A stretch of 64,000 nt of DNA from Planctomycetota bacterium. GTDB lineage: Bacteria > Planctomycetota > B15-G4 > SIAN01. Under the pieces are notes generated by a model. That model did no database searches, was not told the DNA's origin, and worked only from the letters and a program-made list of their open reading frames with translations. The stretch lies in NCBI GenBank assembly GCA_016795285.1, contig JAEUIC010000029.1:133518-197517 (forward strand), given 5' to 3'. The position numbers and the translations under genes are program-made. The first letter of the stretch is position 1. The number at the start of each line of letters is the position of its first letter. Of this stretch, positions 13,865 to 59,311 are shown in pieces.

Positions 13865-13965
13865 CCCACCAGGTGCCGGGGAGTTTCCGTCTCGCCCGGT
13901 GCCGGGGAGTTTCCGTCCGGCCCGGTGGCGGGGAGTTTCCGTCCGGCGCGGTGGCGGGGTTGATT
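13865..13965. repeat. Tandem direct repeat array: three units of about 26 bp (GGTGCCGGGGAGTTTCCGTC...) followed by a variant unit (GGTGGCGGGGTTGATTCTTCC)
   Basis: Read directly from the sequence: caccaGGTGCCGGGGAGTTTCCGTCtcgccc / GGTGCCGGGGAGTTTCCGTCcggccc / GGTGGCGGGGAGTTTCCGTCcggcgc / GGTGGCGGGGTTGATTCTTCCgcg. The array lies in the convergent intergenic region between the VIT-vWA gene and the TonB receptor gene. Confidence 0.85.
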
Positions 13966-14023
13966 CTTCCGCGAGCGGGGACGCGCGTCGGTGACGAGGA
14001 CGCGTCGGAAGAATCAACCCCGC
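13944..14023. repeat. Perfect 22-bp inverted repeat (GGTGGCGGGGTTGATTCTTCCG ... CGGAAGAATCAACCCCGCCACC) enclosing an inner palindrome (GACGCGCGTC / GACGCGTC). A large hairpin could form.
   Basis: Seen directly. The arms are the same motif variant as the two repeats upstream of the DinB-family gene at 20245..20290. Confidence 0.8.
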
Positions 14024-14089
14024 CACCGGTGCGGACCGCCGCGAGCGCACCGTCGGTGGCGCGCTCGCGGCGAGGCGATCAGGAGGCGA

Positions 14090-16207
14090 TCAGAACGTGA
14101 ACTCGAGGCGCAGGTAGAGCTGCCGCGGGGCGCCAGCGACCTTGCCGCCGCCGAAGAAGCCGCCGCGCGAGTGGACCAGCCACTCCTCGTCGAAGAGGTT
14201 GCTGGCACCGAGCGCTGCTCGGATCGTGCGCCCCCCCTCGCGTTCCCACGTCTTCTCGACTTGCGCGTCCCAGATCGTGCGCGACGGGTTGTGGCCGAGG
14301 TTGCCGTTCACGTTCTCGACCGCGGTGTTCGCCTCGTCGGAGAAGGAGTCGCCGACGTAGGTGCCACCCAGCGAGAAGCGCAGCCCGCCCTCCGCGAGGT
14401 AGTGGAAGTTCCACGCCGCCTTGCGCTCCCACGCGTACGGCGTCTCGTTGCCGCGGAACGGCCCTTCGCGCAGCTCCGACTCCTGCAGCGACGCCGAGAC
14501 CATCGCCCCGAAACCGGCGAGCGGCTCCCACATCGCGCCGGCATCGGCGTGCAGCGTGGCGTCGACGCCGTGCGCGACGATGCGCCCGATGTTCTCGTAG
14601 AAGCCGGAGTAGAAGACGCCGACGTCGTCGAAGTCGGTCCGCCACGCTGCCACGGTCCCGTCGATGCCGCCCGGCAGCTCCGCCCGCGTGCCGACCTCGA
14701 ACGAGTCGCCGTGCTCGAAATCGACGTCCTGCGCCGCCGCGCCCGCCGCGAGGTTGAACCCCCACACCTGCGGCGCCCGGAAGCCGCGTTGCCAGTTCGC
14801 GAACAGGGCCCAGTCGTCGCGCACGCGCCAGCTCGCGCTGACGCCCGGCAGCAGCGTGAAGAAGCGGTCGTCGAAGTCGCCGCCAAGCACCTCGTCGTCG
14901 CCGTCCGCGACCGGGATCCACTCGGCGCGCACGCCCGCGGTCAGCTCGAGCCCGTCGAGCGGCTCGAGCGTGTCGTCGACGTGCGCCGAGAACGACGTCA
15001 GGTCGAAGCTCGAGTCCTGCAGCACCGTCGCCGAGCCGCCGCCGAACGGCGTCGAGACGATCTCGTAGTCGGGCAGCCACTCCTGATGGGCGCGCAGTCC
15101 CCAATGGAGGCGATGGCCGCCGGCCGCGGCGAAGCGTCGCTCGCCGCGGATGCCGAGATCGACCCACAGCGAGTCGTCGGTCCAGTCGCGCACCTCGGTC
15201 GGCGCGCCGAACAGCGGGCGGCGCGCGGTGAGCTCGCGATGAGTCTGGCTGAACGCGACGTACGGCTCGATCCACGCCTCGTCGTTGCCGCGATGGTGGA
15301 CGACGTCGAACGCCGCGCGGAACCCGTCGAAGCGGCCCTCGGGCCGGGCGTTGCCGAAGCGATCGGCGGCGAACTCGGCGACGGTGAGGCCGCCCGGCGC
15401 CTGATGGCTGTCGGTGAACCACGAGAAGCGCGTCGCCGTCCACGCATCGGTGCCGTGCTCGCGGCGCAGCTTCACCTCGAGCGACTGCTGGTCGTACGCG
15501 CCGTCCTCGCGGTAGCCCTCGCCGCGCCGATCGCCGAGCGTGACCAGCCAGCCGAGCGCGCGATCGCTGCCGTCGCCGATCGTCGCCACCGTCGACATCG
15601 CATCGAACGAGCCGTAGGTCGACTGCAGCGACGACTCGAACCGGTCGGGGATCGGCCGCGTGATCACGTTGAGCACGCCGCCCACCGTGTTGGGCGAGTA
15701 GCGGACCGCTTGGCCGCCGCGGAGCAGGTCGATCGCGAAGACCTGCTCGGGGAAGAGCGGGAAGAACGAGAGCGCCGTCCAGCCGTACGGCAGCGGATTG
15801 GCCGGAACGCCGTCGATCAGCGGCAGCACGTACTCGGTGAGGCCGTCGTCCGGCAGTCCGTGGATCGAGAAGCTCGGCGCGGCCGCCTCGCCGCCGTTGT
15901 AGGGCCGCGTCGAGAGGGCCGGCAGGTAGAGCAGCAGGTCGTTCAGGTCGCGAGCCCCGATGGCGCGCACCTCCGCGGGACCGAGCACGTCGCGCGAACC
16001 TGGATGGCCGATCGGCACCACCGGCACGCCCGCCTGCCCGACCGAGCCGGTGACGAGCACCGCCGGCAGCTCGAGATCGGGCTTCTTGCCCCCCTCCTTC
16101 GGATCGGGCTCGCGAGCGCTCTCCTGCGCGCGCGCGACCGCTGGCGCGACGACGATCCCGAGCGCGACCCAACGCGACCTGCCCCGCATGCTCATCGGCG
16201 ACTCCAC
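14090..16207 (-). CDS. TonB-dependent outer-membrane receptor
   Basis: Signal peptide, plug-domain motifs, long beta-barrel region, C-terminal ...RLEFTF ending in Phe. 705 aa. Confidence 0.9.
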   Translation of the reverse strand: MESPMSMRGRSRWVALGIVVAPAVARAQESAREPDPKEGGKKPDLELPAVLVTGSVGQAGVPVVPIGHPGSRDVLGPAEVRAIGARDLNDLLLYLPALSTRPYNGGEAAAPSFSIHGLPDDGLTEYVLPLIDGVPANPLPYGWTALSFFPLFPEQVFAIDLLRGGQAVRYSPNTVGGVLNVITRPIPDRFESSLQSTYGSFDAMSTVATIGDGSDRALGWLVTLGDRRGEGYREDGAYDQQSLEVKLRREHGTDAWTATRFSWFTDSHQAPGGLTVAEFAADRFGNARPEGRFDGFRAAFDVVHHRGNDEAWIEPYVAFSQTHRELTARRPLFGAPTEVRDWTDDSLWVDLGIRGERRFAAAGGHRLHWGLRAHQEWLPDYEIVSTPFGGGSATVLQDSSFDLTSFSAHVDDTLEPLDGLELTAGVRAEWIPVADGDDEVLGGDFDDRFFTLLPGVSASWRVRDDWALFANWQRGFRAPQVWGFNLAAGAAAQDVDFEHGDSFEVGTRAELPGGIDGTVAAWRTDFDDVGVFYSGFYENIGRIVAHGVDATLHADAGAMWEPLAGFGAMVSASLQESELREGPFRGNETPYAWERKAAWNFHYLAEGGLRFSLGGTYVGDSFSDEANTAVENVNGNLGHNPSRTIWDAQVEKTWEREGGRTIRAALGASNLFDEEWLVHSRGGFFGGGKVAGAPRQLYLRLEFTF

Positions 16208-16371
16208 GTGCCCCCGTTCGGGGGCCGCGGCGAAGCAAACGAGGCGCCCCGAACGACGCGGCGAAGCGCGCGCAACGCTCGAGTCGCGACGTCATTCCGT
16301 CACCGTCGCGTGACCGCTGCACGAGCAGCGGGAACGACCGCCTGCCCACTGCGCGAGCGCCACCAGCAGCG

Positions 16372-16478
16372 ACCGCGAACGCCGGTGGCGGGGAGTTTCC
16401 ATCCACCCCGGTGGCGGGGAGTTTCCTTCCGGCACGGTGCCGGGGAGTTTCCGTCCGGCAAGGTGGCGGGGTATCTCC
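16372..16478. repeat. Tandem direct repeat array (four units) of the same GGTGSCGGGGAGTTTCC family. It lies about 170 bp upstream of the TonB receptor start.
   Basis: cGGTGGCGGGGAGTTTCCatccacc / cGGTGGCGGGGAGTTTCCttccggca / cGGTGCCGGGGAGTTTCCgtccggcaa / GGTGGCGGGGtatctcc. Confidence 0.85.
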
Positions 16479-16495
16479 ACCACGATCCGATCGCG

Positions 16496-18034
16496 TCACC
16501 AGCGTTCGCGGGTGAGCGGGATGACGATCGTGCGGCGATCGCCGGAGTTCACCGTGAACTCGATGGGAGCGATCGGCTCGAAACCGTCGATCAGTTCGAA
16601 CTCGACCGAGTAGGTGCCTTCAGACCAGAACGGCTGATCGAAGCTGCATGCCGATCCGTCGCGCGATTCGCCGCGCCAGCGAGGTCTCGGCCTCACCGTC
16701 GCCCATGGCAGTGGCACGCGTGTCTCGCCGTCGTGCAGTTCGAACGCGATTCGTGCAATCGCCGGCTCGTCGGGATTCGACCAGTTCCCGCCGCATTCGA
16801 AGCCGTCCCGCGCGGCCTGCGCGAGATCTCCGCTGGCGACCTTGATCCTCGAACACTCGCTGCCCTCAGCGTGACCGGACGCCAGCACGATCGGGCGCAC
16901 TCCTTCGCGCAACCCCGGTTGCCGCACCAATTCCACCGGCCCGACCGGCACGTCGGTCACGCTCGCACGGTTTCCGATGAACTTGACGGGCGCGCTCCGC
17001 CAACCGTGAGTCGCCCGCCCCGATCGCAGCCACACACCGACCCGATCATTTCGCGACGGCATCACCTCCTCACCCACTGCGACGATCTCGACCTCCGTCG
17101 CCGGCCAGAGCCGCACTTCGCGCGCGCCACCGCCGCGCGCATCGATCTCGAGAGTTCGCTCGACGCGACCCGCTGCCTGCACCGTCAACTCGATCTCTCC
17201 CGCCCACCAGTCCGCGATGCCCGCCTGGACCTTGAACCCGCCCGCCTCGGTCCACCACGCGCCGCCATCGATGCACCTCTCGCTGCGCTCCTCCCCACGC
17301 ACGATGCCAAACGCGAACGACCCGCCCTGCCGCACGAACTCCCACGATTCACCCAACGCGTCGAGCGGCACACCGGCTTCCGCGGCCACGACTCGGACGA
17401 AGGTCGCGGGCGGCGCGATCCACCGCAGCTCCGCTTCGCGCTCCTCGGACAGCCGGCGCCAACGAACGTCGAGCGGCAGCACGCGCTCGCCTTCGCTCGT
17501 CGCGAACGCCCGCCACCAGATCTTCGAGCGCGGCAGCTCGGCGAACGCGGCTGGCGGCGTCGCGACGAAGCGATCGCCGTTGACGGGAGGTTGGTGGATG
17601 TGGACTGCGCCGCCCGCCCAGAACTCGACGCGCACCGACGGATCGAGCTCAGGCAGCTTCATCCACTCGGGCACGCGGCGATCGATCGTTCCGTGCACCG
17701 TCGGCAGCGGCTCGGCGGCCGTCGACGGCCGGTCGAGCTCACGCAACACAAGCCCCGTCAGCGAGAGGCTCGCCACGTTCCGATCGGAGCCTCCCGGTTC
17801 GGTCGGCGACACGATCGCGGACGCGGCCTTCGACGACTCGCTCGCGCCCCGCCCACCGCTGCCGCCTTCGGCGAGCACCGCGCGATCGAACCGCAACTCG
17901 GGCATCTCCGGGGAGCACCCCCCAGCGAGCAGCGCCGGCAGCAGCGGCGCCACCATCACTCGCCGAGCCCTGCCCGATCGATCGCCGATCGCCATCGCTC
18001 GCTCCTCGTCGCGGTCGGCAGCGTGCCGATGCAT
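16496..18034 (-). CDS. Hypothetical lipoprotein. The likely true start is about 17956 (MVAPLLPALLAGGC lipobox-like signal).
   Basis: The ORF has high GC3 and varied composition, and the N-terminal signal ends in a Cys. It lies upstream of, and on the same strand as, the TonB receptor gene. Confidence 0.55.
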   Translation of the reverse strand: MHRHAADRDEERAMAIGDRSGRARRVMVAPLLPALLAGGCSPEMPELRFDRAVLAEGGSGGRGASESSKAASAIVSPTEPGGSDRNVASLSLTGLVLRELDRPSTAAEPLPTVHGTIDRRVPEWMKLPELDPSVRVEFWAGGAVHIHQPPVNGDRFVATPPAAFAELPRSKIWWRAFATSEGERVLPLDVRWRRLSEEREAELRWIAPPATFVRVVAAEAGVPLDALGESWEFVRQGGSFAFGIVRGEERSERCIDGGAWWTEAGGFKVQAGIADWWAGEIELTVQAAGRVERTLEIDARGGGAREVRLWPATEVEIVAVGEEVMPSRNDRVGVWLRSGRATHGWRSAPVKFIGNRASVTDVPVGPVELVRQPGLREGVRPIVLASGHAEGSECSRIKVASGDLAQAARDGFECGGNWSNPDEPAIARIAFELHDGETRVPLPWATVRPRPRWRGESRDGSACSFDQPFWSEGTYSVEFELIDGFEPIAPIEFTVNSGDRRTIVIPLTRERW

Positions 18035-18119
18035 CGATCTCAGGAACGGGCGCTCGCCCTCACGGTTCGAGCGAGGCGCCGATGGATCGCGCCTGCCCGC
18101 GCGCTACTTTGCGCGCACC

Positions 18120-19577
<1,458 letters not shown>

Positions 19578-19595
19578 CCGAACGCTCCGCGGCGT

Positions 19596-19640
19596 CCCGA
19601 TCCGGGAGCGTTCCGCCGCCGAGATCCGCACCACGCGGGG
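19596..19640 (+). repeat. REP-like intergenic element (copy 1): GATCCGGGAGCGTTCCGCCGCCGAGATCCGCACC
   Basis: Member of a roughly 35-bp family. Other copies are at 22978..23010, 23052..23086 (inverted), 26645..26700 (variant), 32815..32860 (inverted) and 51318..51352. Confidence 0.8.
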
Positions 19641-19668
19641 CCGCCCATCGGGGTGGCCCCGCGGTCGT
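19638..19668 (+). terminator. GC-rich hairpin (CGCGGGGCC-gcccatcggggt-GGCCCCGCG) downstream of the M20 peptidase gene
   Basis: Perfect 9-bp stem read directly. There is no U-tract, which is common for intrinsic-like terminators in high-GC genomes. Confidence 0.4.
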
Positions 19669-19747
19669 TCCGGGAGGAGCGGCACGGACGACGACGACGA
19701 AGTTCGCGCTGCAACGGGGCCACGGCCTCGCCGCGCCCCCCCTCTTC

Positions 19748-20244: not shown

Positions 20245-20290
20245 CCGGTGGCGGGGTCGATTCTTCCGGCCTGGTGGCGGGGTCGATTCT
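20245..20290. repeat. Two tandem copies of GGTGGCGGGGTCGATTCTTCC immediately upstream of the DinB-family gene's RBS and start codon
   Basis: Read in the gene's orientation: GGAAGAATCGACCCCGCCACC-aggcc-GGAAGAATCGACCCCGCCACC-GGAGGAGtgatcgATG. Confidence 0.85.
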
Positions 20291-20333
20291 TCCGCGCCGC
20301 GCGCGCCGCCTCCGCCGCTCACCGCCCCGCCGC

Positions 20334-21166: not shown

Positions 21167-22924
21167 CTACTTCGCGCGCGCCTGCAGCCATGCGACGACG
21201 GTCGCGAGGAACTCGGGATCGACCGGCCGCGGCCGCAGGTAGTCGGCGGTGGTCGGCGGGATCGTCGTCACCTTCTTGAAGAGGTGGTCGAGCGCCGCGA
21301 ACTTCGCAAGAGTTGCATCGGGATGGCCGGCCGCCTGCAGCGTCGCCAGCAGTGGCGGCGCATCGCGCTCCGCCGAGACCTGCACGTCCTGCTCGCCCTG
21401 CGCGATCAGCACCGGGCACTTCACCTGCGCGATCGTCGCCAGCGGATCGTGGCGCGCGTGGCTTCGCAGCCAGTCGCGATCGGCGAGCGCCGGTCGGTAG
21501 TCGGCGCGCACCTGCTGCAGATCGATCGGCCCGTCGCCGGCGACGAGCTTCAGGAACTCGGCGTGCACCGCGAGTTCGTCGTCGAGCAGCTTCCCGCGCA
21601 GACCCGCCGCCTCGAGCCCGGCGCGCTTCTGCTCGCGCAAGAGCGCCATCAAGTCGCGGCCGGGAGCGGCCAGCAGCACGACGCCGCGCAGCGGCTGCTC
21701 GATGGCCAGCAGCGGCGCGATCACGCCCCCCTCGCTGTGGCCGATGACGAAGAGGCGCTCCGGGTCGACGTCGTCGCGCGCGCAGAGCAGCTCGAGCCAG
21801 CCGCGCGCGTCGTCGGCGAGGTCGCGCAGCGTCGCACCGGTCAGCGTGCCGCCGCTCGCGCCGGTGCCGCGGTCGTCGACGCGCAGCACCGCGAAGCCGG
21901 CCGCGGTGACCGCGTCGAGCAGCTCGTGCGTCCCGAGGTCGAGGCCGCCCGAGAGGCCGTCGCGATCCTGCGGCCCGGAGCCGCCGACGAAGAGCAGCGC
22001 CGGCAAGCGGCCGGTCGCGCCGAGCGGCTTGGTGACGGCGCCGGCGAGCGTGAAGCCGCCGCGCGCGAGCGTCACCTCCTCGCGCGCGAAGTCGGCGCGC
22101 GGCAGGCTCGGCGGCGCGACCGTGAAGCGCTCGAGCGGCGCGTCGGTGCGGCGGATGCGGAAGCCCTGCGCCGGGATCTCGATCTCGAAGATCGCGCCGT
22201 CTTCGCGGAGCCGCGTCACCTGGCCGAGCGAGTCGCGGACCTTGCGGCCGCGATGGACGACGCCGTCGCGCTCGACCACGTAGTCGGCGAGGCGGCGCAG
22301 CTCGAAGGCCAGCATCGCCACGCTGTCGGCGTGGAAGAGCGGCGGGCGGAGCGTCTCGCCCTCCTCCGGCCGCGCCGCCAGCACGATCAGCTCCATCAGG
22401 CCGATCCAGTTGTTGGCGAGCAGCAGCGCGTCGGGGCCGACCGGCGCGACGATCGGCTGGCTCTTCGGGCCGCTGACGAGTCGCCCCCGCGCCTGGCCGT
22501 CGGCGACGACGAACTCGAGGTCGTGGACCATGCCGCCCACTTCGGAGAGGAAGTGCGCGCGGCGCGGATGGCCGCCGTCGTCGACGATCACCTCGCCGCT
22601 CGCGCGCAGCTCCGCCTTGCCGAGCGGTCCCTGCTGCTCGATCCGCCAACCGCCGGTGAAACGGTGGAGCGGCGGCGCGACGTCTTGCAGCGGACCGGCG
22701 TAGTCCCACCACGAGTGGCCGATCGCGACGCCGCCCTGCTCGAAGAGGAATCCCGCCTGCGCGCCGGGCGCGTAGTGGTCGGCGACGCGGAACGGCGCGC
22801 TCAATGCCGCGGGAGCTGCCGCGGTTGCTGCCGGGGGCGCTGCCGCTGGCGGCGTCTCCTGCAGCGGTGCGCAGCACAGGAACGCCGCCGCGAGCCACCC
22901 ACCGCCGATCGTCGTCGCCATCGC
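21167..22924 (-). CDS. Secreted alpha/beta-hydrolase fold protein (peptidase/esterase-like)
   Basis: GHSEGG nucleophile elbow (GxSxG). Likely start at MATTIGGGWLAAAFLCC (signal). The 35-codon N-terminal extension in the ORF track covers the REP-like repeat and is rejected. Confidence 0.7.
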   Translation of the reverse strand, partial: AMATTIGGGWLAAAFLCCAPLQETPPAAAPPAATAAAPAALSAPFRVADHYAPGAQAGFLFEQGGVAIGHSWWDYAGPLQDVAPPLHRFTGGWRIEQQGPLGKAELRASGEVIVDDGGHPRRAHFLSEVGGMVHDLEFVVADGQARGRLVSGPKSQPIVAPVGPDALLLANNWIGLMELIVLAARPEEGETLRPPLFHADSVAMLAFELRRLADYVVERDGVVHRGRKVRDSLGQVTRLREDGAIFEIEIPAQGFRIRRTDAPLERFTVAPPSLPRADFAREEVTLARGGFTLAGAVTKPLGATGRLPALLFVGGSGPQDRDGLSGGLDLGTHELLDAVTAAGFAVLRVDDRGTGASGGTLTGATLRDLADDARGWLELLCARDDVDPERLFVIGHSEGGVIAPLLAIEQPLRGVVLLAAPGRDLMALLREQKRAGLEAAGLRGKLLDDELAVHAEFLKLVAGDGPIDLQQVRADYRPALADRDWLRSHARHDPLATIAQVKCPVLIAQGEQDVQVSAERDAPPLLATLQAAGHPDATLAKFAALDHLFKKVTTIPPTTADYLRPRPVDPEFLATVVAWLQARAK

Positions 22925-22977
22925 CTCGCTCCGCGCCCGAGCTGGATCGGCGGCGGATGGTAGCTCTGGCGTTTCGT

Positions 22978-23086
22978 TCCGGGAGCGTTCCGCCGCCGAC
23001 TTCCGCACCTCGCGCCGAGCGCGTCCCATCGCCGCTGGCGCAGTGTGGAAGGGTGCGGATCGCCGCGGCGGAACGCTCCCGGAACG
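22978..23086. repeat. Large palindrome formed by two inverted copies of the REP-like element (CCGGGAGCGTTCCGCCGCCGACTTCCGCACC ... GGTGCGGATCGCCGCGGCGGAACGCTCCCGG)
   Basis: Arms of about 31 bp separated by about 45 bp. Located between the hydrolase gene start and the stop of ECF-fusion gene 23097..26594. Confidence 0.8.
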
Positions 23087-23096
23087 GGGTGCCGGT

Positions 23097-26000
23097 TTAG
23101 CGGCGGCTCACGAGTTCCGTGACGGAGCCGGCGACGATCTCGGCGCTCGCCTCGCGGACGGCGCCGTCGGGCGAGGTGATGACGATTCGAATGGGGCCGG
23201 GCGGCAGCGCGGGGAGTCGCCAGCGGCCGCCCTGCACCATCAGATGCGCCCACGGCACCGCACCGTCGAGCCACGCGCCGTTCGAACCGACTCGCGGCAG
23301 CGGCGCGCCGTGCAGGTCCTCGACGACGACCTCGGCGCCGAGCTCCGGCTGGCCGTCGCCACCGAGCAGCAGCAGCGACAGCGCGCCGCACGGCGGTGGC
23401 GCGAGCGTCCGCTCGATCCGCCCTGACTCGTTCGCGCCGATCGAGAGGCGCGTCGCCGCCGGCATCGGCAGCTCGCGAGCGGTCCAGAACGTCGGCGCCA
23501 CCAGCAGCTCGAGCGCCCCTTCGGGCAGCTCGTGGACGATCAGCCGCCCCGCTTCGATCGTGTGGCGCGCCAGGTAGGGAGCGAGGCCGTCGGCGGCGAC
23601 GGTGACGCCCCACGGAGCGCGGCCAGAGGAGTCAATCGCGCTCGGCGGCGGGAGCGTCAACGCCAGCTCGCGCGTCGAGCGGCGCAGCGTGACGGTGCTC
23701 TCGCCGGGCAGCGACTCGACGAAGCTCGCATCGACCTCCTGCGGCACGAAGCCGGTCGCGTGGACCAGCACACTCCAACGACCGGGAACGAGCGCGCGCG
23801 TCGTGAAGCGGCCGTCGGCGTCGCTGGTCGTGCGGCGCGGATCACTGCTCTCGAGCGACGGCACCTGCCACCGCCGCGCCGGCGGCAGCGCGACGCTCCC
23901 GTCGGCCGCGAAGACGAGGCCTGGCCAGCCGAGCACTTCAACGCTGGCGCCTGCGATCGGCGCGCCGCTCTCGTGATCGATCACGCGACCCGTCAACGGA
24001 CCGAACGCCAGATCGAGGTCGATCGACGGCTCCTCGCCGGGCGCGAAGCTCGGCAGCTCGCCCACGGAACCGTGGACGCTCTCGTCGCTCGTCCCGTTCA
24101 CCGTCCAACGCAACGGCCGGCCGCTCGGCACCGCGAGGTCGAAGAAGCCCTCGTCATCGAGCGGCTGCGACGACCCCGCGGCGCGCACCGGCTCGACGTC
24201 GGTGAGGGCGAGGAGTCCGCCGCGCAACGGCTCGCCGTTCACGCGCAGCGAGCCGGTGAAGCGGGCGCGCTGCGACTCGGGGAGCACGTGGAATTCGAGC
24301 GTGGCGGACTCGCCTTCGCGCAGCACGATCTCGCGCGCCGAAGGGCCGGCGAGGAGCAGGTCGCTCGGGATCATCGCCTGCACGACGTACTCGCCGGGCA
24401 GCAGTCGCTCGAAGCGGTACGAATCGTCGAGGTCGGCGGTGCGACCTCCCGAGCTGCTGGTGCGCGGTTGGAAGAAAAGGGAGCGCAACGGGACGGCCTC
24501 ACCAGGGAGCGGCGCCACCACCCGCTGCTGGAACAGGAACTTCGGCCGCATCGGCGACTTCGGTGCGCCGATCAGCCGCACCTGCAAGCTCGCGCCGCGC
24601 TGCAGCGCAACCACGGGCGGACCCGACGATGCCGCGAGCGGCACGTCGAGCTGGCGTGGCGCGAACTCGGCGTGCGCCACGCGCAGCGTCGCCCACTCGC
24701 CGCGCGCCGGCAGCTCGAAGAAGCCGGCGGCGTCGCTGGTTGCGCGAGCGTCGCTCTTCGGTGCCTTCGCGGGATCGCCGTCGAGCGGATACGAGGCCGC
24801 CTGCCCCGACACGAGCAGCACGACGGCGTTCGCGATCGGCGCCCCATCACTCGCCGCGACCACGCGACCGCGCAGCACGCCGACCGCGGCGATCGCGACG
24901 TCGATCGCGAGGTCGGCCCCGCACGGCAGCTCGACGAACTTCTCGACGGCCGCGCGTCCCGACACCTCGACGCGCACGTTCAAGCGGACCGGTGCTTCGA
25001 TGCTGGAGAAGCGCCAGCTCGCCGGCTCGTCGGGGTCGCGCTCGACCGAGAGCTGCCGGCCGCCACCGACGATCCCGCGCGTCGGCGGATTGGCGAGCCA
25101 CGGCGCGAACGCCTCGACCGTCACGCTCGGCTCGACGCCGTCGGGCAGCGCGCCGCTCACGACGACCCGTCCGCGCGCCGGGCGACCGAGCGCCAGCCGA
25201 TGCGTCTCGCCGGGATCGACCGCGAAGACGCTCACCGCGAACCCCTCCCGCTCCACGCGTACGCCGATCGCGCCATGACTGCGGCCTCCCGACGCCCCTT
25301 CGTCCGTCGGGAGGCCGGTCATGCGGAACGTGCCGTCCGCTCCGCTGGTCGCCGACTGCACGGCGCCGACTTCGAGCAGCGGCAGCTCGCTCGGCAGCGG
25401 CTCGGGCAGGGCCCAGTTGGCCCAGTCGTCGCAAGCGAGCAGCGCCGCACCCGCGACCGGCACCCCCGTCTCGTCGACGACGATGCCGGCCACGGTGCCG
25501 CCGGCGCGGACGATCAGCGGCGGCAGCTCGAGACCGTCGACGACCTTCGACGGCTCGCGTGGCTCGGCGGCCAGGCGACCGGGCAGGCCCGCCAACAATT
25601 GCAGCAGCGCGTCGACATGGAGCCCGGCGAGCTCGAAGCGGCCGTCGCTGTCGCTGTGCTGATCGACGTGCCAGACCATCTGCGACGCATCGGCGCCGAC
25701 GAGCTCGAGCGCCATGATCCGCGCGCCCGGCAACGGAGCGCCGCTCTCGTCGACGACGCGGCCGCGGACGGTGGCGAGCGCGGCGGAACTCTTAGCGGCG
25801 AGCGGCGCCGCGAGAGTGGCGAGGGCGGCAGCGCTGGCGCCGTTCGGGTCGCCGCTCGCTCCAGATGCCGCCGCGTCCGCGGCCGCGGGCGCGCCGATCG
25901 CCACCGCCGGAGCGGGCTGCTCGTCGGGGCGCGTCCACCGCCACGCGCCGATCAACGCACCGCCGATCAACAGCGCCGCCGCCACCTTCGTCGCCAGCGC

Positions 26001-26594
26001 GGCGCCGCCGCTCGCGATCGGCTCGAGGCCCCACGCGAAGCTCGCCAACCACTCGCTACGGCCGCCCGGATGGAGCGCGTCGAGTTTCGCGCGCAGCTGC
26101 TCGAGGGCGCGTCGCAATCGGGTGCGCACGGTCGGCTCGGGCGCCCCTTCACCGGCGGCGATCTGCGCGACGGAGCGCTCCTCGAAGAAGCGGAGCACGA
26201 TCACGCGTCGGTAGGGCTCGTCGAGTTCGGCGACCGCGTTCGCGAGCAGCCGCAGCGTCTCCGCGCGCTCGAGCGCGTCCTCGGTGGTCTCCACCTCCGA
26301 GCGGGCGACGGCCGCCTCGCGACGAGTGCGCCGCGCCGCGCTGCGCTGCGAGCGGAACGCGAGGTTGCGGACGACCGCGGCGAGCCACGAGCGGCCGTCC
26401 CGCAGGTGCGCCGGCGGCTGCGTCAGCGCGACGGCCGCCGCCTCCTGGACGGCATCGGCGGCCGCGTCGTCGTCGCGCAGCAGCTGGCGCGCGAGCGCGT
26501 GGAGGGAGCGGCGATGCTGCTCGAAGAGAGCCGCCATCGCGCTCGCCGGATCCGCTGCGCCCATCGCATCGATCGCATCCATCGCCTGCTCCAC
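23097..26594 (-). CDS. ECF sigma factor fused to a transmembrane helix and a large extracytoplasmic domain (about 900 aa) of carboxypeptidase-regulatory-like repeats
   Basis: N-terminus has sigma-70 region 2 (DAVQEAAAV...) and region 4 HTH (YRRVIVLRFFEERSVAQIAAGEGAPEPTVRTRLRRALEQLRA). This is followed by a hydrophobic segment (AAALLIGGALIGAWRW), then repeated GRVVDxxGxPxxGA...SDxDGxFxL units. 1165 aa. Confidence 0.8.
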   Translation of the reverse strand: MEQAMDAIDAMGAADPASAMAALFEQHRRSLHALARQLLRDDDAAADAVQEAAAVALTQPPAHLRDGRSWLAAVVRNLAFRSQRSAARRTRREAAVARSEVETTEDALERAETLRLLANAVAELDEPYRRVIVLRFFEERSVAQIAAGEGAPEPTVRTRLRRALEQLRAKLDALHPGGRSEWLASFAWGLEPIASGGAALATKVAAALLIGGALIGAWRWTRPDEQPAPAVAIGAPAAADAAASGASGDPNGASAAALATLAAPLAAKSSAALATVRGRVVDESGAPLPGARIMALELVGADASQMVWHVDQHSDSDGRFELAGLHVDALLQLLAGLPGRLAAEPREPSKVVDGLELPPLIVRAGGTVAGIVVDETGVPVAGAALLACDDWANWALPEPLPSELPLLEVGAVQSATSGADGTFRMTGLPTDEGASGGRSHGAIGVRVEREGFAVSVFAVDPGETHRLALGRPARGRVVVSGALPDGVEPSVTVEAFAPWLANPPTRGIVGGGRQLSVERDPDEPASWRFSSIEAPVRLNVRVEVSGRAAVEKFVELPCGADLAIDVAIAAVGVLRGRVVAASDGAPIANAVVLLVSGQAASYPLDGDPAKAPKSDARATSDAAGFFELPARGEWATLRVAHAEFAPRQLDVPLAASSGPPVVALQRGASLQVRLIGAPKSPMRPKFLFQQRVVAPLPGEAVPLRSLFFQPRTSSSGGRTADLDDSYRFERLLPGEYVVQAMIPSDLLLAGPSAREIVLREGESATLEFHVLPESQRARFTGSLRVNGEPLRGGLLALTDVEPVRAAGSSQPLDDEGFFDLAVPSGRPLRWTVNGTSDESVHGSVGELPSFAPGEEPSIDLDLAFGPLTGRVIDHESGAPIAGASVEVLGWPGLVFAADGSVALPPARRWQVPSLESSDPRRTTSDADGRFTTRALVPGRWSVLVHATGFVPQEVDASFVESLPGESTVTLRRSTRELALTLPPPSAIDSSGRAPWGVTVAADGLAPYLARHTIEAGRLIVHELPEGALELLVAPTFWTARELPMPAATRLSIGANESGRIERTLAPPPCGALSLLLLGGDGQPELGAEVVVEDLHGAPLPRVGSNGAWLDGAVPWAHLMVQGGRWRLPALPPGPIRIVITSPDGAVREASAEIVAGSVTELVSRR

Positions 26595-26644
26595 TCCGTC
26601 CGCGGTCGCTCCGAAAGGCAGGAGCCCGCGGTCACGCGAAGTGA

Positions 26645-26700
26645 TTCACGATTCCGGCGTGTGGCGGGGGCGTGTGCGGATCGCGGCGGCGGATCACTCC
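26645..26700. repeat. REP-like element, divergent copy
   Basis: Reverse complement reads cgtttcgttccgggagtgatccgccgccgcgatccgcac. It lies directly upstream of the ECF-fusion gene start at 26594. Confidence 0.6.
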
Positions 26701-26712
26701 CGGAACGAAACG

Positions 26713-26889
26713 TCACCGCTTCGCCGGCTCCGCCGCCCAGGCGGTGGCGAACCAGACGATGGAGGCGAGCAGGAGCCAGCGCTTCACGGCCGGCAGATCG
26801 AGCGCGCCGTGGAAGTAGGCGAGCGCCGGCCAGAGGGTGGTCGCCAGCGCGAGCCAGGAGACGATCCGCAGCAGTCGTCGCAGCGTCAT
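26713..26889 (-). CDS. Small two-TM membrane protein, translationally coupled (ATGA overlap) to the upstream NCS1 transporter gene
   Basis: MTLRRLLRIVSWLALATTLWPALAYFHGALDLPAVKRWLLLASIVWFATAWAAEPAKR. Start chosen at the Met that overlaps the transporter stop codon. Confidence 0.45.
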   Translation of the reverse strand: MTLRRLLRIVSWLALATTLWPALAYFHGALDLPAVKRWLLLASIVWFATAWAAEPAKR

Positions 26890-32538: not shown

Positions 32539-32793
32539 GTGCCCGACTACAGCGCGTACCAGAAGGGCGTGATCAAGCGCTACTACGAGCACCGCGACAC
32601 GATCGCGGTGCACAAGCTCGCGGAGATCCTCTCCGACCTCTGGCTCGAGAAGAGCAAGGCGAAGGTGACGACGCTCTGGGAGTCGGCTTACAAAGAGCTG
32701 CAGAAGGCCGGCGTCCCGATCAACAAGGCGTGCGTCATCGTCGAGGACCGCGACCTCGAGGCGTTCGGGAAGCTGGTCGCCGAACTGTCCTGA
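32539..32793 (+). CDS. Small conserved hypothetical protein (84 aa)
   Basis: GTG start preceded by GGGGAGG 7 nt upstream. Varied composition (VPDYSAYQKGVIKRYYEHRDTIAVHKLAEILSDLWLEKSKAKVTTLWESAYKELQKAGVPINKACVIVEDRDLEAFGKLVAELS). High GC3. Confidence 0.5.
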   Translation: MPDYSAYQKGVIKRYYEHRDTIAVHKLAEILSDLWLEKSKAKVTTLWESAYKELQKAGVPINKACVIVEDRDLEAFGKLVAELS

Positions 32794-32814
32794 GCCGCTC
32801 GCCGCGGGAGGGTG

Positions 32815-32860
32815 CGGGTGCCGGCGGCGGAACGCTCCCGGATCGGGACGCCGCGATCCT
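32815..32860 (-). repeat. REP-like element, inverted copy
   Basis: Forward strand reads GGTGCGGGTGCCGGCGGCGGAACGCTCCCGGATCGGG. Confidence 0.75.
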
Positions 32861-32882
32861 CTTGAAATGACGCGGAGCCGGC

Positions 32883-32912
32883 GCGTTGGCACCGGCTCCG
32901 CATCGTGATCTC
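32883..32912 (+). terminator. Hairpin (GCGGAGCCGG-cgcgttggca-CCGGCTCCGC) between convergent genes
   Basis: Perfect 10-bp stem read directly. Confidence 0.4.
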
Positions 32913-32963: not shown

Positions 32964-33917
32964 TCAGCCCGCGAGCTTGGCAGCGGCCTCCTTCGGCACT
33001 TCGATCGTCGTCGCGCCGAACGCCTTCAGCGTGTAGCTCTGCTTGCGCTTCGAGTCACCGCGCGCCGTCGTCATGGTGGTCTCGATCACGATCTGCGTCG
33101 GCATGCCCGCCGCATCGAAGGTGATCGACGCCGTGCCGCTCGCGGTGATCTCGCCGCCGGCGCCACCGCCAGCACCGCCGCCCGCGCCGCCGAACCCGCC
33201 GCCGCCCGCGAACATCTCCTTGATGCGCTTCGCACCGGAGAACTCGTCGGCCGCTTCCTGGCTCAGCGCACCGCTGATGGTGCAGGCGCCGTTCGCCTCG
33301 CTGCAGGTGAGGTCCTTCAGCTTGCCGTGCATCCCGGTCAGCAGCTCGTGCGGCAGCGCCACGCTCGCGAGGCCCATCACCGCGAAGCGCTCGCGCATGT
33401 CGCCGCCGCCGCCGCCCGGACCGCCGCCGGGCGGACCGCCCGCGCCACCGGCCGGAGGACCACCCGCGCCGCCGCCCGCCTCACCGCCGCCGCGCCGGCC
33501 ACCGCCCGCGCCGCCGCCGAACTCGGGCGCCGTGTAGAGCTCCCACGCGTCGCCCTTCTTGTAGACCATCTTCGTGTCGCGTCGGTAGGCGAGCGACTCG
33601 CCGCGCGTCAGCTCGACGCCCTTGCCGATCTCGACCTTGCCGACGGTGGGCGTCGGAGCCGGCGGCGCGCCGCCGGCATCGCCACCACCACCGCCCTCGC
33701 CGCCGCCGCGCCGTCCGCCGCGACCGCCGCGCCCGCCCATCCCGGCGCCGTCATCGAGCGCCTCGAACGTGTAGCTCTTCAGCTCCGACAGCTTGGCGAG
33801 CTTCTCCTTCAGCATCGCCGCGGCATCACCAGTGGCGGCCGCCGGCGGCGGAGCGAGCGTCGCGCCCTGGTTGGCATCGCCGAGCAGCAACGCCGAGAAA
33901 CAGAGGCTCATCAACAT
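32964..33917 (-). CDS. Secreted glycine-rich protein of unknown function
   Basis: Signal peptide at MLMSLCFSALLLGDANQGA. Several poly-Gly/Arg/Pro tracts (GGRGGRGGRRGGGEGGGGG..., GGGPGGGGGD) alternate with ordinary sequence. The ORF-track N-terminal extension to 34241 is rejected. Confidence 0.5.
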   Translation of the reverse strand: MLMSLCFSALLLGDANQGATLAPPPAAATGDAAAMLKEKLAKLSELKSYTFEALDDGAGMGGRGGRGGRRGGGEGGGGGDAGGAPPAPTPTVGKVEIGKGVELTRGESLAYRRDTKMVYKKGDAWELYTAPEFGGGAGGGRRGGGEAGGGAGGPPAGGAGGPPGGGPGGGGGDMRERFAVMGLASVALPHELLTGMHGKLKDLTCSEANGACTISGALSQEAADEFSGAKRIKEMFAGGGGFGGAGGGAGGGAGGEITASGTASITFDAAGMPTQIVIETTMTTARGDSKRKQSYTLKAFGATTIEVPKEAAAKLAG

Positions 33918-34227
33918 CGTTCGTCCCTCATCGACCCGCGACGACCGGAGCTGCGCCAGCTCCGCCTGCGGCCGCGACTCGATGGTCGCGCGCACGCGGG
34001 CGCCGCGATGCGGGGTGGCAGCGGCGCCTCCTTCAATGCCGTCTTGTACGCCGTGCGTTTCGATCGAGTAGCGCGCGGGCCCTGTCATTCTGGCGACATC
34101 TTGCGATGGCGCGGTTCCGCGCGCGGCGACGCGTCCGCGCGCTCGTGCGCCGGCGCGCCGCATCGCCACCGGCGCCGCCGCTCGCCACCATTGACCGCCC
34201 CGCACGCCGCGGTGAATCTGCGCCGCG

Positions 34228-44515: not shown

Positions 44516-44593
44516 CGAGCGGACCCATCCGCGGCCGCCGTCGTCGGCGACCGCCACATCTCCGCGGCCGCCGTCGTCGGCGACGGCCATATC

Positions 44594-51303: not shown

Positions 51304-51317
51304 TGCGGGCGTCGGCG

Positions 51318-51352
51318 GCGGATCGATCCGGGAGCGTTCCGCCGCCGAGCAT
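51318..51352 (+). repeat. REP-like element copy (GATCCGGGAGCGTTCCGCCGCCGAGCATCGCACC) between convergent genes
   Basis: Seen directly. Confidence 0.8.
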
Positions 51353-51359
51353 CGCACCG

Positions 51360-51911
51360 TCAGCGGCCGGCGGTCGTTCCGCCGCTCGGCGTGCCGCCGC
51401 TGCCACCGCTGCTGCCGCTACCGCCGCCGGCCGGCGCCTGCGGCGTGGTCCACTCGGCGGCGAGATCGATCCGCCCCGTCACGCCGCCCGCCCCCTCGAC
51501 GGCCCACGCATTGCCACCCTGGCCGCGCGTCAACGCGAAGAGTCGCGTGCAGCGGTGGCTGCCGTCCGGCATCACCAGGCAGACCGGCGTCGGCGCTTCG
51601 TTGGTCAGCGTCGGCGCGAAGCCGAGCGCCATCAGCATCTGCTGCGACGACGGCGCGGACGACAGCGCCGTCTGCACGAGGTTGCGCAGCAACGCGAGGT
51701 CGGGATCGCAGCAGTTGGGACCGAGCGGCAGCTGCAGCGTCGTCCAGCGCGTCTCGACCGCGACCATCTCGGGCGTGCGCAGCGGCGCGAGCATCGCCGC
51801 CTTCACCGCCTGCTGCTCGAGCGGGGTGCGCGACTGGAACGGCGGCGTGCCGCTCGCGAGATCCACGGTGAGCGTGAACGAGAGGCGGAACGGCACGGTC
51901 GTCACGGGCAT
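51360..51911 (-). CDS. Hypothetical protein with a Gly/Ser-rich C-terminus
   Basis: High GC3 and ordinary composition. No recognisable motif. Confidence 0.45.
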   Translation of the reverse strand: MPVTTVPFRLSFTLTVDLASGTPPFQSRTPLEQQAVKAAMLAPLRTPEMVAVETRWTTLQLPLGPNCCDPDLALLRNLVQTALSSAPSSQQMLMALGFAPTLTNEAPTPVCLVMPDGSHRCTRLFALTRGQGGNAWAVEGAGGVTGRIDLAAEWTTPQAPAGGGSGSSGGSGGTPSGGTTAGR

Positions 51912-55900: not shown

Positions 55901-58900
55901 TCACTCGAAGGTGATGTCGCGCGACTCGACCTCTCCGCTACCGCCACCGTCGATCCAGACCTCCCGCAGCGTCGTCGCAACACCCGAAGCGTCGTCGGCT
56001 TGCGCCCAGAGGTGGTACGACGGAGCGCGCACCGCCACGAATTCGTAGCTGCCATCCGGTCCGGAACGAGCATGCGCTCCCTCGACGGCGACTCCCCACT
56101 CGCCGTCGTCGTCGCTGAAGCGCGCGGTGAGCATCAAGCTCGCATTCACCGCGGGGGCACCGGCCCCGCGATGCACGACGCGCCCGCGGAACACGCGCCG
56201 CGCCATGCCCTCGACTCGGTCACCCCGCACGTCCGGCACGCGCAACACGACCTCGCGCCCTCGGGGCGCCGCCGGCTGCGACGGCGAGAACCACGCCGGC
56301 GCATCGGGATCGGCTGACTTCGGGTCGCGCCGCACCGAGAGCGTGTGAACGGCCGGATCGAGGTTCTGCAGCTCGAACCGGCCGTCGGCGCCGGCCGCCA
56401 CGTGGAAGTTCGTTTCGGAATCCGCCACCGAAGCCCGCACGATCGCGCCGGCGAGCGGTGCGCCGGTGAGGCGGTCGACGACTCGACCGCGGTAGCCGAC
56501 CTCGCTGATCGGAATCTCGACGACTCCGCTCATGAGCGTTGCGAGCGGCAGCGGCAGCCTCCAATGGAAGCCGTCGGGCGCGGCCACCTCGATCCGGGTC
56601 CAGTTCGCCGCGTCCGCATCGATCGCCCCCTCGCCACCGAGGTCGTGCCACTCGCTGACGACGTACATCCCTTCGCGCGCGCGCCAACCGGTGAAGTCGG
56701 TGACCCCGTCCGCCGTGATCCGAAGGCGGATCGGTCCGGCGGGCGGCGCCGTCAGTGCGATCGCCGCCGCCTTCCCCTCGACGACGACGACCCGCTCCAG
56801 CGCTTGCGGCAACGGGACGTGCTCGTCGCGCGTGCCGTTCAACGTGACGAGGTGCAGGCCGACCTCGAGCCCCTCGAAGCGGGCGACTCCCGCGGCGTCG
56901 GTGTACTCCGCGCGTTCCTGCTGGCTCGGGCTGCGCAGGCAGACCTTCGCTTCCGAACGTGGCTCTCCGGCGGGATCGCGCACGACCACCTCGATCGTGC
57001 CGCCGCCGGCCAGATCGATCCGAAGGGGCAAGGCGAGCGGCAGCTCGACCAAGCGCAAGCAGGGCGGCGCCGCGCCCTCGACGACCTTGACCACGTACTT
57101 CCCGGGTGGGCCGTGCAGCAGGAAGGCGCCGTCGCTCCCGCTCGCGACCTCGTCGATCCGCTGCAGATCGTCGGGCCGCCACGAGAGCGGGTAGTAGGCA
57201 TTCAGCGACACCGCTGCTCCGCCCACGGGAACACCGCGCTTCAGCACGTGCCCGCGAACCTCCGGCGTTGCTCCCGCTTCGAGCTCGACCGTGCAACTCG
57301 CGCGGCGATCGGACGGCGCGATCTCGACGCTCTGCGGTGCGTGAGCCTTGGTCCAGACCGAGATGCGCAGCGGCCCCATCCTCGGAGCGCCGTAGCCCGT
57401 CGGCCGAGGGCCCGATTCGAGTTCGAGCCGCCCCCGCGGCGCATGCACCCTGCCGAAGTAGGCGACGCTGCCCGATTCCATCGAGGTGCCGAGCAGCGAG
57501 AACGACTCGATCGGGGCGCCCGATTTCGCGTCCAAGACGGTGAGGACCGGCATGCGACGAACGACCAGCAGCGCCGGTGCGCCCCCCTCGTCCGGCCGCA
57601 ACTGCGGCGAGCTGTGCCAAGTCCTCCCGCTGCGCTCCTCGCGGCGCTCGACGATCTCGAAACCTGGCGTCACGCAGTCGACCTGCACGCACGCCGCCCC
57701 GATCGACGCTGCGAAGGCGCCGCCTTCATCGGTATCGATGAGCCACGGGCCGGCGCGACGGGCGCGCCGCTGCTCGAATGGCGTCGTGCTCGCATTCGGT
57801 GTCCGTTCTGCCGAACTCGCCATCAACCGCAGTCGAACCGGTTCACGGACCGGCTCTCCCGCCTCGTCCACCAAGTAGCCCTCGATCTCGCCGAGCCGCT
57901 CGAGCGCGATCGAAACCTCGGGCGCGCCCTTCCCCGCGGAAGTAGCGGAGCGCGAGGCGTCGTTCCCCGACTCGATCGGCACCACCACCACCTGCCGCTC
58001 GAAGTCGGCGTGACTCACCACGAGGACGCCGTTCGAACGCGACAGCGACAACGCGAACCGGCCCTCCGCATCCGTCTGTGCTCGCGCGAGCGGCACGCTC
58101 GCCGGGTCGGGCGGCGCGCAGACCTCGACCAGCGCCCCGTCGCGCCAAGCGTTCTCCGGCAGCGGCAGCACGATCCGCGGCCAGCCCGCGGCGAAGTGGA
58201 GCTGCCCGACGCAACGGAGGTTCCCGTGGGCGTAGTCCCCGAAGCGGCGCGTCGCGTCGTCGAGCGTCAGCTGGAGCGGAGCGAAGAACTCGATCGTGAC
58301 GCCTGGCAGCGGTCGGGAGGTGGTTGCCTCGATGACGTCGCCTCGGATCTCGGCGACCATCGCTGCTGCCGACGGATCTGGCGGACGCGGCGCATGCTGG
58401 CTCGCCTCGCGGAGCGCGGTCGGCGACACCGTCCCTCCCGATGGCGCGACCTCATCGTCGAGCCGGGCGACCGCCTCCGTCGGCGTCGACGGCGTGATCG
58501 GCGAGTCGACCGGCTCGGCGCGCTTGCCGTTCGAGTCGCTCCACCAGAGCGCGCCCGCGCCTGCTGCCACCAGGAGCACGGCGCCAACGAGTCCCTTCTT
58601 CATCGCCATCCAGCTCCCGATCGTGATGACCGACCCCGCCGCGACTCCCGACGCGACCCCTACCGCCGCCTCGCTCGCTGCGTCGACGACCGACGCGCGG
58701 ACCGCCGCGAGCCCGCGCCCCAACTCGGAAAGCAAGGACGGCGCGACGAGGGACGCCATGGAGCAGCTGCGCGGCAGCCGCTGGCGCAACTGCTCGAGGG
58801 CGCGATGGAGCTGAACGCGGACGCTGCCGGGGCTGCGACCGAGCGCGCGCGCAATCTCCGCCGGCTTCAGCTGGTGCCGCAGCGTGAGGATCGCCACCTC

Positions 58901-59311
58901 GCGATAGGGCTCCGCCAGCCGATCGAGCTCGCGCTGGACGATCCCGTCGAGTTCTCGCAGTCCCGCCGCCGCGACGACCCCGCCTCCCGATGCGACCGGT
59001 TCGAGCGCCGGCAGCGCTTCCAGATCGCCCGCACGCACGACCCGACGACGTGCGTTGCGGGAGTGGTTGGCGAGGATGCCGAGCAGCCACGGCAGGACAG
59101 GTCGACTCGCGTCGAAGCGACTCCACCGCTCGATCGCGGTGACGAAGGTCTGCTGGACCAAGTCCTCGGCACTCGCGAGGTCGCGCGCCACGTGGCAAGC
59201 GACTCGCAGCAGGGTGGGGGCCGTGCGATCGAACAGCTCCGCCATCGCAGCGGATGCGCCACTGCGGCGAGCGTCGACGAACAGCTCCTCGAGCGATCGA
59301 TCACCAGCCAT
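55901..59311 (-). CDS. ECF sigma factor / TM / extracytoplasmic carboxypeptidase-regulatory-like repeat fusion protein (paralog of 23097..26594)
   Basis: Region 2 (AEDLVQQTFVTAIERWSRFD). Region 4 HTH (YREVAILTLRHQLKPAEIARALGRSPGSVRVQLHRALEQLRQRL). TM (MKKGLVGAVLLVAAGAGALWW). Then an exported domain of about 850 aa containing GRVVDxxTGAPLAGA...ADGRFEL units. 1136 aa. Confidence 0.8.
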   Translation of the reverse strand: MAGDRSLEELFVDARRSGASAAMAELFDRTAPTLLRVACHVARDLASAEDLVQQTFVTAIERWSRFDASRPVLPWLLGILANHSRNARRRVVRAGDLEALPALEPVASGGGVVAAAGLRELDGIVQRELDRLAEPYREVAILTLRHQLKPAEIARALGRSPGSVRVQLHRALEQLRQRLPRSCSMASLVAPSLLSELGRGLAAVRASVVDAASEAAVGVASGVAAGSVITIGSWMAMKKGLVGAVLLVAAGAGALWWSDSNGKRAEPVDSPITPSTPTEAVARLDDEVAPSGGTVSPTALREASQHAPRPPDPSAAAMVAEIRGDVIEATTSRPLPGVTIEFFAPLQLTLDDATRRFGDYAHGNLRCVGQLHFAAGWPRIVLPLPENAWRDGALVEVCAPPDPASVPLARAQTDAEGRFALSLSRSNGVLVVSHADFERQVVVVPIESGNDASRSATSAGKGAPEVSIALERLGEIEGYLVDEAGEPVREPVRLRLMASSAERTPNASTTPFEQRRARRAGPWLIDTDEGGAFAASIGAACVQVDCVTPGFEIVERREERSGRTWHSSPQLRPDEGGAPALLVVRRMPVLTVLDAKSGAPIESFSLLGTSMESGSVAYFGRVHAPRGRLELESGPRPTGYGAPRMGPLRISVWTKAHAPQSVEIAPSDRRASCTVELEAGATPEVRGHVLKRGVPVGGAAVSLNAYYPLSWRPDDLQRIDEVASGSDGAFLLHGPPGKYVVKVVEGAAPPCLRLVELPLALPLRIDLAGGGTIEVVVRDPAGEPRSEAKVCLRSPSQQERAEYTDAAGVARFEGLEVGLHLVTLNGTRDEHVPLPQALERVVVVEGKAAAIALTAPPAGPIRLRITADGVTDFTGWRAREGMYVVSEWHDLGGEGAIDADAANWTRIEVAAPDGFHWRLPLPLATLMSGVVEIPISEVGYRGRVVDRLTGAPLAGAIVRASVADSETNFHVAAGADGRFELQNLDPAVHTLSVRRDPKSADPDAPAWFSPSQPAAPRGREVVLRVPDVRGDRVEGMARRVFRGRVVHRGAGAPAVNASLMLTARFSDDDGEWGVAVEGAHARSGPDGSYEFVAVRAPSYHLWAQADDASGVATTLREVWIDGGGSGEVESRDITFE

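Follow-up and report, generated by a model that had tools for sequence, protein, structure and literature searches.

Between the convergent M20 peptidase and DinB genes, in a stretch of 64,000 nucleotides of bacterial DNA (the whole of which is referred to here as the window), lies a short sequence that recurs in other intergenic spacers of the same stretch. What kind of element is repeated in this way, whether a signal read in DNA or RNA, a site of recombination or a small mobile sequence, is the question addressed here, using the copies themselves, the corresponding DNA of relatives, and collections of genomes and metagenomes.

A 42-nucleotide repeat in intergenic spacers

A sequence-only reading of the window had described a family of about 35 bp at five loci. 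The repeat is real and occupies five loci, but the unit is 42 nt long and its coordinates are corrected below. The window contains six full copies and one partial inverted copy, and their alignment divides the unit into an 11-nt head (GGCGTYYCGWT), a nearly invariant 20-mer core (CCGGGAGCGTTCCGCCGCCG) and an 11-nt tail (NNNTCCGCACC). The ends are sharp, running from GGCG... to ...GCACC, with a reverse complement that begins GGTGC; the unit-end sequence, for comparison with the ends of insertion sequences, is GGCGTYYCGWTCCGGGAG. Three GWTCCG hexamers are carried in direct orientation, at spacings of 11 and 13 nt. The G+C content of the window is 73%, and the core finds seven matches in it at up to three mismatches, as against a mean of 0.20 in dinucleotide-shuffled sequences, none of which (0 of 100) reaches seven. 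A profile built from the copies recovers the full units with E-values of 5e-14 to 7e-12 and the partial inverted unit at 2e-5, and a search of the whole 64 kb with this profile yielded no other credible copy; matches at 56404-56443 and 40447-40470 were inspected and dismissed as chance. Local alignment of the 100-nt flanks of the copies revealed no homology beyond the 42-nt unit, the flanks differing at every site, which indicates that the element is discrete. All copies known from the source genome are confined to 32 kb (19.6-51.4 kb of the window), and about 2 kb of that genome beyond the window contain none.

Genes were called from third-position GC content and checked by Pfam and by gene calls on independent contigs. 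Intergenic DNA makes up about 8% of the window, and all five repeat loci are intergenic, the chance of five independent loci being so placed amounting to about 3e-6. Three of the seven convergent junctions in the window are occupied, together with two of the 21 tandem junctions and none of the seven divergent ones, and at each locus one copy is situated 0-17 nt from a stop codon.

The first copy, c1 (19591-19632, + strand), is a full unit that begins 13 nt past the TGA of the M20 peptidase gene (the stop ends at 19577) and abuts a terminator-like hairpin. This GC-rich hairpin of 13 bp (19634-19663; -32.4 kcal/mol, z -4.0) is situated between the convergent M20 and DinB genes and outside the repeat. 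Two short fragments accompany the copy: 5' of it an inverted piece of the core, GAACGCTCC (19580..19588, + strand), which can pair with 19606-19614 and is largely unpaired in the c1 fold, and a direct fragment resembling the head-core junction, GTTCCGGGAGG (19667..19677, + strand), which is a weak nhmmer match. A similar setting is found at c4 (32811-32852, - strand), the tail of which lies 17 nt past the TGA (32791-32793) of a + strand gene, so that the copy stands between this stop and a second terminator-like, GC-rich hairpin located between convergent genes (32867-32906; z -5.6 and -8.3 on the two strands). A strong GC hairpin therefore does adjoin two of the copies, as had been noticed from the sequence. 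The first 31 nt of c4, comprising head and 20-mer core, are the same as in c1, and the exact shared run extends to 33 nt when two flanking bases are included.

The remaining full copies are arranged differently. The copy c2a (22968-23009, + strand) is separated by 46 nt from the ATG (22921) of the S15/S33 peptidase gene downstream of it and is inverted with respect to c2b (23052-23093, - strand), which is found 3 nt past the TAA of gene 23097..26594, and also with respect to c3. Together, c2a and c2b make up an inverted doublet of 126 bp, arranged tail to tail around a 42-nt spacer, which folds at -92.4 kcal/mol (z -7.5). The most diverged copy, c3 (26673-26714, - strand), has two mismatches in the 20-mer core and is located upstream of an ECF-sigma-like gene, its head overlapping by 2 nt the TGA (26713-26715) of a 58-aa membrane ORF. 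Finally, c5 (51317-51358, + strand) occupies a convergent junction, starting 13 nt past the TAG of a Dabb-domain gene on one side and finishing 1 nt short of the stop of gene 51360..51911 on the other. The partial inverted copy (51302-51345, - strand; E 2.3e-5) overlaps c5 head-to-head, and the two constitute a single palindrome that takes up all 56 nt separating these convergent genes (-38.7 kcal/mol, z -3.8).

These positions modify the initial description in part. Copies had been said to lie always just past the 3' end of a gene, and every locus indeed has a copy within 17 nt of a stop, but for c2a the start codon 46 nt downstream is the more fitting landmark; similarly, where four of the five loci had been said to lie between convergent genes or directly after a stop, the five comprise three convergent and two tandem loci, each with a copy at that short distance. 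The remark that apparent N-terminal extensions of ORFs run through the copies is correct for 21167..23029, the true start of which is at 22921, and for 23097..26645. A coding role for the unit in the source genome was considered and rejected, c1 being out of frame with the upstream ORF; the only coding copy is on an unrelated metagenomic contig (L029) described below.

Relatives, a 3.7-kb difference and copies elsewhere

About 90 kb of syntenic DNA from relatives (L032, L033, L034/L035 and L036/L037) contain no significant copy of the repeat. A match at the end of the L032 contig (E 0.04) overlaps the start of a cytochrome c gene and was not accepted. The spacer between the M20 and DinB genes measures 170 nt in the window, 60 nt in L032 and 15 nt in L033; a MAFFT alignment of c1 with the L032 spacer at about 60% identity is not reported by nhmmer and was for this reason judged to be GC-driven. 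These relatives are too diverged in their intergenic DNA for clean empty sites to be defined at c1 and c4. Where c4 lies in the window, L033 carries a comparable hairpin and an extra DUF6265 gene without the unit, so that the hairpin at 32867-32906 predates c4. Since the repeat is missing from the equivalent sites of relatives, it looks young, lineage-specific and mobile or prone to recombination, and not like a regulatory signal.

The most informative comparison is with the closest relative, L042 (ENA ERZ27257034), which shares 89-93% nucleotide identity with the window. A segment of 3,712 bp (22989-26700, - strand) is absent from L042; it takes in gene 23097..26594, c2b and the spacer, together with the inner portions of c3 and c2a. 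In L042, only 86 nt separate the 58-aa ORF from the peptidase gene that comes next. Between them, L042 keeps 12 nt from the outer end of c3 and about 23 nt of c2a, inverted with respect to each other and joined by CCGCG. As this remnant consists of outer c3 and outer c2a, both breakpoints are inside repeat units, and the repeats had a physical part in the event, whether this was a gene gain here or an excision in L042. Under one scenario, the segment would have been inserted into a pre-existing head-to-head remnant; under the other, a unit bounded by inverted repeats would have been excised nearly precisely in the L042 lineage. The gene concerned, 23097..26594, is also missing in L033, and in the more distant L036 different genes occupy this position. 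It encodes a 1,165-aa ECF-sigma/CarboxypepD_reg protein, the best non-self match of which is 47% identical. The window has a paralogue at 55901..59245 (- strand; 1,114 aa), and both long proteins combine N-terminal ECF sigma-70 regions 2/4 with C-terminal CarboxypepD_reg repeats. The two are only about 31% identical, so a recent local duplication as the source of the inserted gene is ruled out.

A second intergenic repeat family was observed in the window, at 13872-13975, 13950-14027, 16384-16487 and 20247-20298. It consists of 26-nt tandem units, GGTG[G/C]CGGGGAGTTTCCGTCCGGC, in three to four copies ending in the variant GGTGGCGGGGTTGATTCTTCCG, and includes a perfect 22-nt inverted pair (-63.9 kcal/mol, z -7.8). 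The two arrays flank a TonB-dependent receptor gene (14090..16291), and L032, L033 and L034 are without a TonB-receptor gene between the VIT/VWA and M20 genes. There is one unit in L042 versus two in the window, and none in the more distant relatives. Compared with the reverse strand of the 42-nt repeat, the second family has in common a GGGAG.GTTCCG-like core and the leading GGTG. The 1.8 kb that follow, between the TonB-receptor and M20 genes (16292-18119), hold no confident gene, only a weak 487-aa ORF on the - strand without a Pfam match; the M20 ORF itself stays open for some 900-1100 nt upstream of the true start, which 485-aa homologues place at about 18120, and the relatives have 30-200 nt or other small genes at the equivalent place. 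Elsewhere in the window, the gene at 43037-44590 (- strand), next to methyltransferase and DUF4357 genes, encodes HTTM and vitamin K-dependent gamma-carboxylase lumenal domains (E 1e-72 and 6e-42), and an ORF at 32964-34241 (- strand) has low-complexity repeats of the Gly/Pro type and no Pfam match, its 3' end being conserved with L033. The taxonomic assignment of the DNA is uncertain, because the nearest named homologues of the M20 peptidase, at about 67% identity, are from Myxococcota; identical proteins (MBL8842966-MBL8842996) are labelled 'Planctomycetes bacterium', and the gene content is planctomycete-like (DUF7133, 3-keto-disaccharide hydrolase, FG-GAP and DUF1553-type neighbours).

Beyond these relatives, an exact degenerate pattern of the repeat was searched for in 185,579 representative genomes, one per species. 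The scan returned 28 scattered single matches in unrelated taxa, all of which are attributed to chance as none carries the unit tail, and the IMG/VR viral contigs and a plasmid collection gave no match to the repeat. A metagenome scan with an extended pattern identified one true copy, at 739-784 of contig L029, which is unrelated to the window and derives from a different organism. This copy is in frame within the 3' part of a DUF1553 (PSD1) gene. Protein and DNA alignments with the nearest homologue reveal that 19 nt of the native gene have given way to 34 nt of the unit between conserved flanks, adding five codons in a variable loop near the C-terminus and keeping the reading frame; the first 4 nt of the unit (GTCG) and its last bases (CACG) coincide with the conserved flanks. 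The metagenome-assembled genome GCA_009691715.1, which has a homologue of the L029 gene, contains no copies.

Assembly breaks offer a further, indirect indication. Logan contigs from SRR12144677 and SRR10555717, which match the window at 100% identity, break off at 19603, within c1, one of them having its other end at 22997, within c2a; further Logan contigs terminate at positions outside the repeat. The terminal 31-mers of the contigs that break inside the repeats are unique within the window. If Logan contigs behave as the product of a k=31 de Bruijn graph assembly, which we take them to do, such ends would imply other copies that share at least 30 nt and then diverge exactly at the unit ends. 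These breaks are suggestive, and only suggestive, of further copies outside the window.

Candidate explanations for the unit

The location of the copies after stop codons makes it natural to consider a selected 3'-UTR RNA element, transcribed with the upstream gene, that would terminate transcription, govern mRNA stability or be bound by an RNA-binding protein. At four of the five loci, a unit follows a stop in forward orientation at a distance of 0-13 nt, the C-to-U variation in the head keeps G-U pairing in a weak consensus hairpin, and strong hairpins are formed by the doublet and by c5. Against this, the folds of single units are no more stable than those of shuffled sequence (z -0.43, +0.29, +1.45, -0.13/+0.20 and +0.46), and strong folds appear only where units are inverted, in c2a/c2b and in the palindromic c5. 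The RNAalifold consensus is a weak 11-bp hairpin (-9.4 kcal/mol) with no compensatory pairs and a covariation term of +0.47, its variation being C/U on the 5' arm only. Rfam 15 has no match to the unit at the gathering score, and at a permissive threshold the doublet gives only generic long-hairpin matches to miRNA precursors. Moreover, c4 is reversed relative to the nearer stop, c2a is located upstream of a start codon, the orthologous genes of relatives do without the unit, and the L029 copy is within a coding sequence, all of which makes a selected RNA element rather improbable. The suggestion that the unit itself is a terminator fails for want of a stable hairpin and a T tract and since units occur in both orientations relative to the upstream gene; the terminator-like features are the separate hairpins at 19634-19663 and 32867-32906. 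The single unit is probably without function, while the inverted pairs may incidentally provide stable 3' hairpins that act as transcript-end or mRNA-stability structures. Similarly, a DNA-binding site or promoter, such as the -35 GGAAC of an ECF sigma factor or a response-regulator box, could account for the GGAAC pentamers on the reverse strand, the three direct GWTCCG hexamers about one helical turn apart, the position of c3 upstream of an ECF-sigma-like gene and the proper orientation of c2a 46 nt before a start codon. ECF sigma promoters combine a -35 GGAAC with a CGTC-like -10 element across a spacer of 16-17 nt and face the downstream gene. In the repeat, the spacer from GGAAC to CGCC/CGTC is 15 nt and only c2a faces a gene start, and both pentamers are present only in c2a and c2b, c3 having the second only (GGATC replaces the first) and c1, c4 and c5 the first only. 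The GGAAC strand is directed into the 3' end of the neighbouring gene or into a terminator in five of the six copies, and in c3 it points away from the sigma gene; three loci are between convergent genes, which need no promoter, and the divergent junctions, where promoter regions are located, hold no copies. An ECF -35 role, initially left open, is contradicted by these data, and a promoter or binding site of any kind appears highly improbable.

The other explanations concern how the repeat came to be dispersed. Purely local events, that is, a few segmental duplications in the region or chance similarity in very GC-rich DNA, would agree with the clustering of all known source-genome copies within 32 kb and with genome and metagenome scans that found almost nothing else. 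The outcome of the shuffling, the sharp limits of homology between unrelated flanks, the independent copy in L029 and the assembly breaks at 31-mers unique in the window all speak against such an origin, to the point that we give it hardly any credence. The 3.7-kb difference to L042 raises the possibility that the units are att-like sites for the insertion or excision of gene-sized segments, c3 and c2a being hybrid junctions with a head derived from the target and a core and tail derived from the insert. The breakpoints within units, together with the presence in L042 of only two inverted heads, fit this explanation, as do the reciprocal arrangement of c5, with tails outward and cores central, the different gene content at the c4 site, the lack of a close homologue of the inserted gene, and the spacing of the GWTCCG hexamers, which is typical of protein-binding sites. 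On the other hand, the window is without a recombinase, four of the six full copies (c1, c2b, c4 and c5) are not breakpoints of a mappable gene-sized difference, although the c4 site does differ in gene content, and a nearly precise excision or slippage between inverted repeats explains the L042 remnant equally well. With one informative junction pair to draw on, att-like sites seem unlikely. A more radical version, which we regard as quite doubtful, has the unit as the crossover or recognition site of an undescribed gene-module insertion system, based neither on integrons nor on dif, the modules of which land beside stops. Each insertion would then restore complete units at its two junctions by combining a head-only target (as in L042) with tail-bearing incoming DNA (the polarity of c5), and the second repeat family around the TonB-receptor gene could be a parallel case.

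On the basis of the available data, the 42-nt repeat is a previously undescribed family of a known class, the small dispersed repeats, and it is probably a young, lineage-restricted, non-coding and non-autonomous member, mobile or recombinogenic, of the broad group of REP/BIME- and MITE-like sequences. The original proposal of a lineage-specific repetitive extragenic palindrome thus holds as far as lineage specificity, extragenic location and concentration at gene 3' ends are concerned, but the unit is not a palindrome (z -0.4 to +1.5, no compensatory pairs). Short intergenic spacers would have acquired the unit by copying or by recombination, through either an enzyme encoded outside the window or host recombination or repair for which the units serve as portable homology. 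The unit boundaries show no visible target-site duplication, and microhomology is seen at junctions, which favours a mechanism other than classical DDE cut-and-paste, possibly single-strand (Y1-type), template-switching or site-specific. In a genome with 8% intergenic DNA, copies may survive only where they are harmless, just past stops and mostly at convergent junctions. Some features sit uneasily with a dispersed repeat of this group: a single unit is not palindromic, which is atypical of REPs, units of 42 nt that are mostly solitary are atypical of MITEs, and the window reveals no mobilising enzyme, target-site duplication or parent element, a Pfam scan of 30 window proteins having found no RAYT (Y1_Tnp, PF01797), transposase, integrase or recombinase.

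Small dispersed repeats are common, yet few have been described for uncultured, very GC-rich lineages from soil or sludge. A family of this kind breaks short-read assemblies, inflates ORF calls and marks differences in gene content between close relatives, and a mapped indel with both breakpoints in units provides a handle on repeat-promoted gene gain and loss. As the non-palindromic monomer misfits the RAYT/REP model, identifying what drives the repeat might uncover another mode of dispersal. Should it prove to be no more than a decaying MITE or REP family, its practical value would be limited to annotation and strain typing.

Comparison with known dispersed repeats and recombination sites

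Gene cassettes with attC sites and the pdif-XerCD modules of Acinetobacter plasmids resemble the present case in that a repeat directly follows the stop of a gene variably present among relatives, and in that units bound a gene module, with breakpoints within the units. Unlike integron attC sites, the consensus has no R/L boxes (GTTRRRY; RYYYAAC ... GTTRRRY), and unlike dif it lacks the 11-6-11 architecture; copies are dispersed in mixed orientation and not in an array, and an integrase or Xer context is missing. A closer parallel is provided by MITEs and mobile insertion cassettes such as Correia, ERIC, RUP and MIC231. The segment from c2b through the spacer to c2a can be viewed as a 126-bp element with terminal inverted repeats of about 42 bp, and the 3.7 kb from c3 to c2a as a cassette carrying a passenger gene between inverted repeats (83% match over 47 nt) without a transposase; the remnant of outer repeat ends in L042 resembles a nearly precise excision. 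In contrast to MITEs, there are no target-site duplications and no known parent insertion sequence, most copies are solitary 'half' units (c1, c3, c4 and the L029 copy are solitary) with inverted ends in the doublet only, and c5 has the opposite polarity, with tails outward.

The third group, the REP, BIME and REPIN sequences of E. coli, Pseudomonas and Stenotrophomonas (SMAG), is well characterised in terms of its structure and mobilisation. REP units carry a GT[AG]G tetranucleotide at the 5' end beside a hairpin and are mobilised by RAYT Y1 transposases; REPs and REPINs number tens to hundreds per genome, and the RAYT gene is usually flanked by REPs. The 42-nt monomer departs from this scheme in not being palindromic, in having ends (GGCG... 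and ...GCACC) without a GTAG or GTGG head beside a hairpin, and in the absence of a RAYT among the 30 window proteins scanned; a search of the literature on REP/RAYT in myxobacteria found nothing relevant. In other respects the similarity is extensive. The repeat falls into the same class of 20-60 nt, is extragenic and lineage-specific, is enriched after stop codons and at convergent junctions, lacks target-site duplications, and occurs both as single units and as inverted pairs with a short linker. An inverted doublet that gives a long hairpin, as in REPINs, is found in c2a/c2b, and c5 forms a comparable palindrome (z -3.8), so that in its organisation the c2a/c2b pair resembles a BIME or REPIN.
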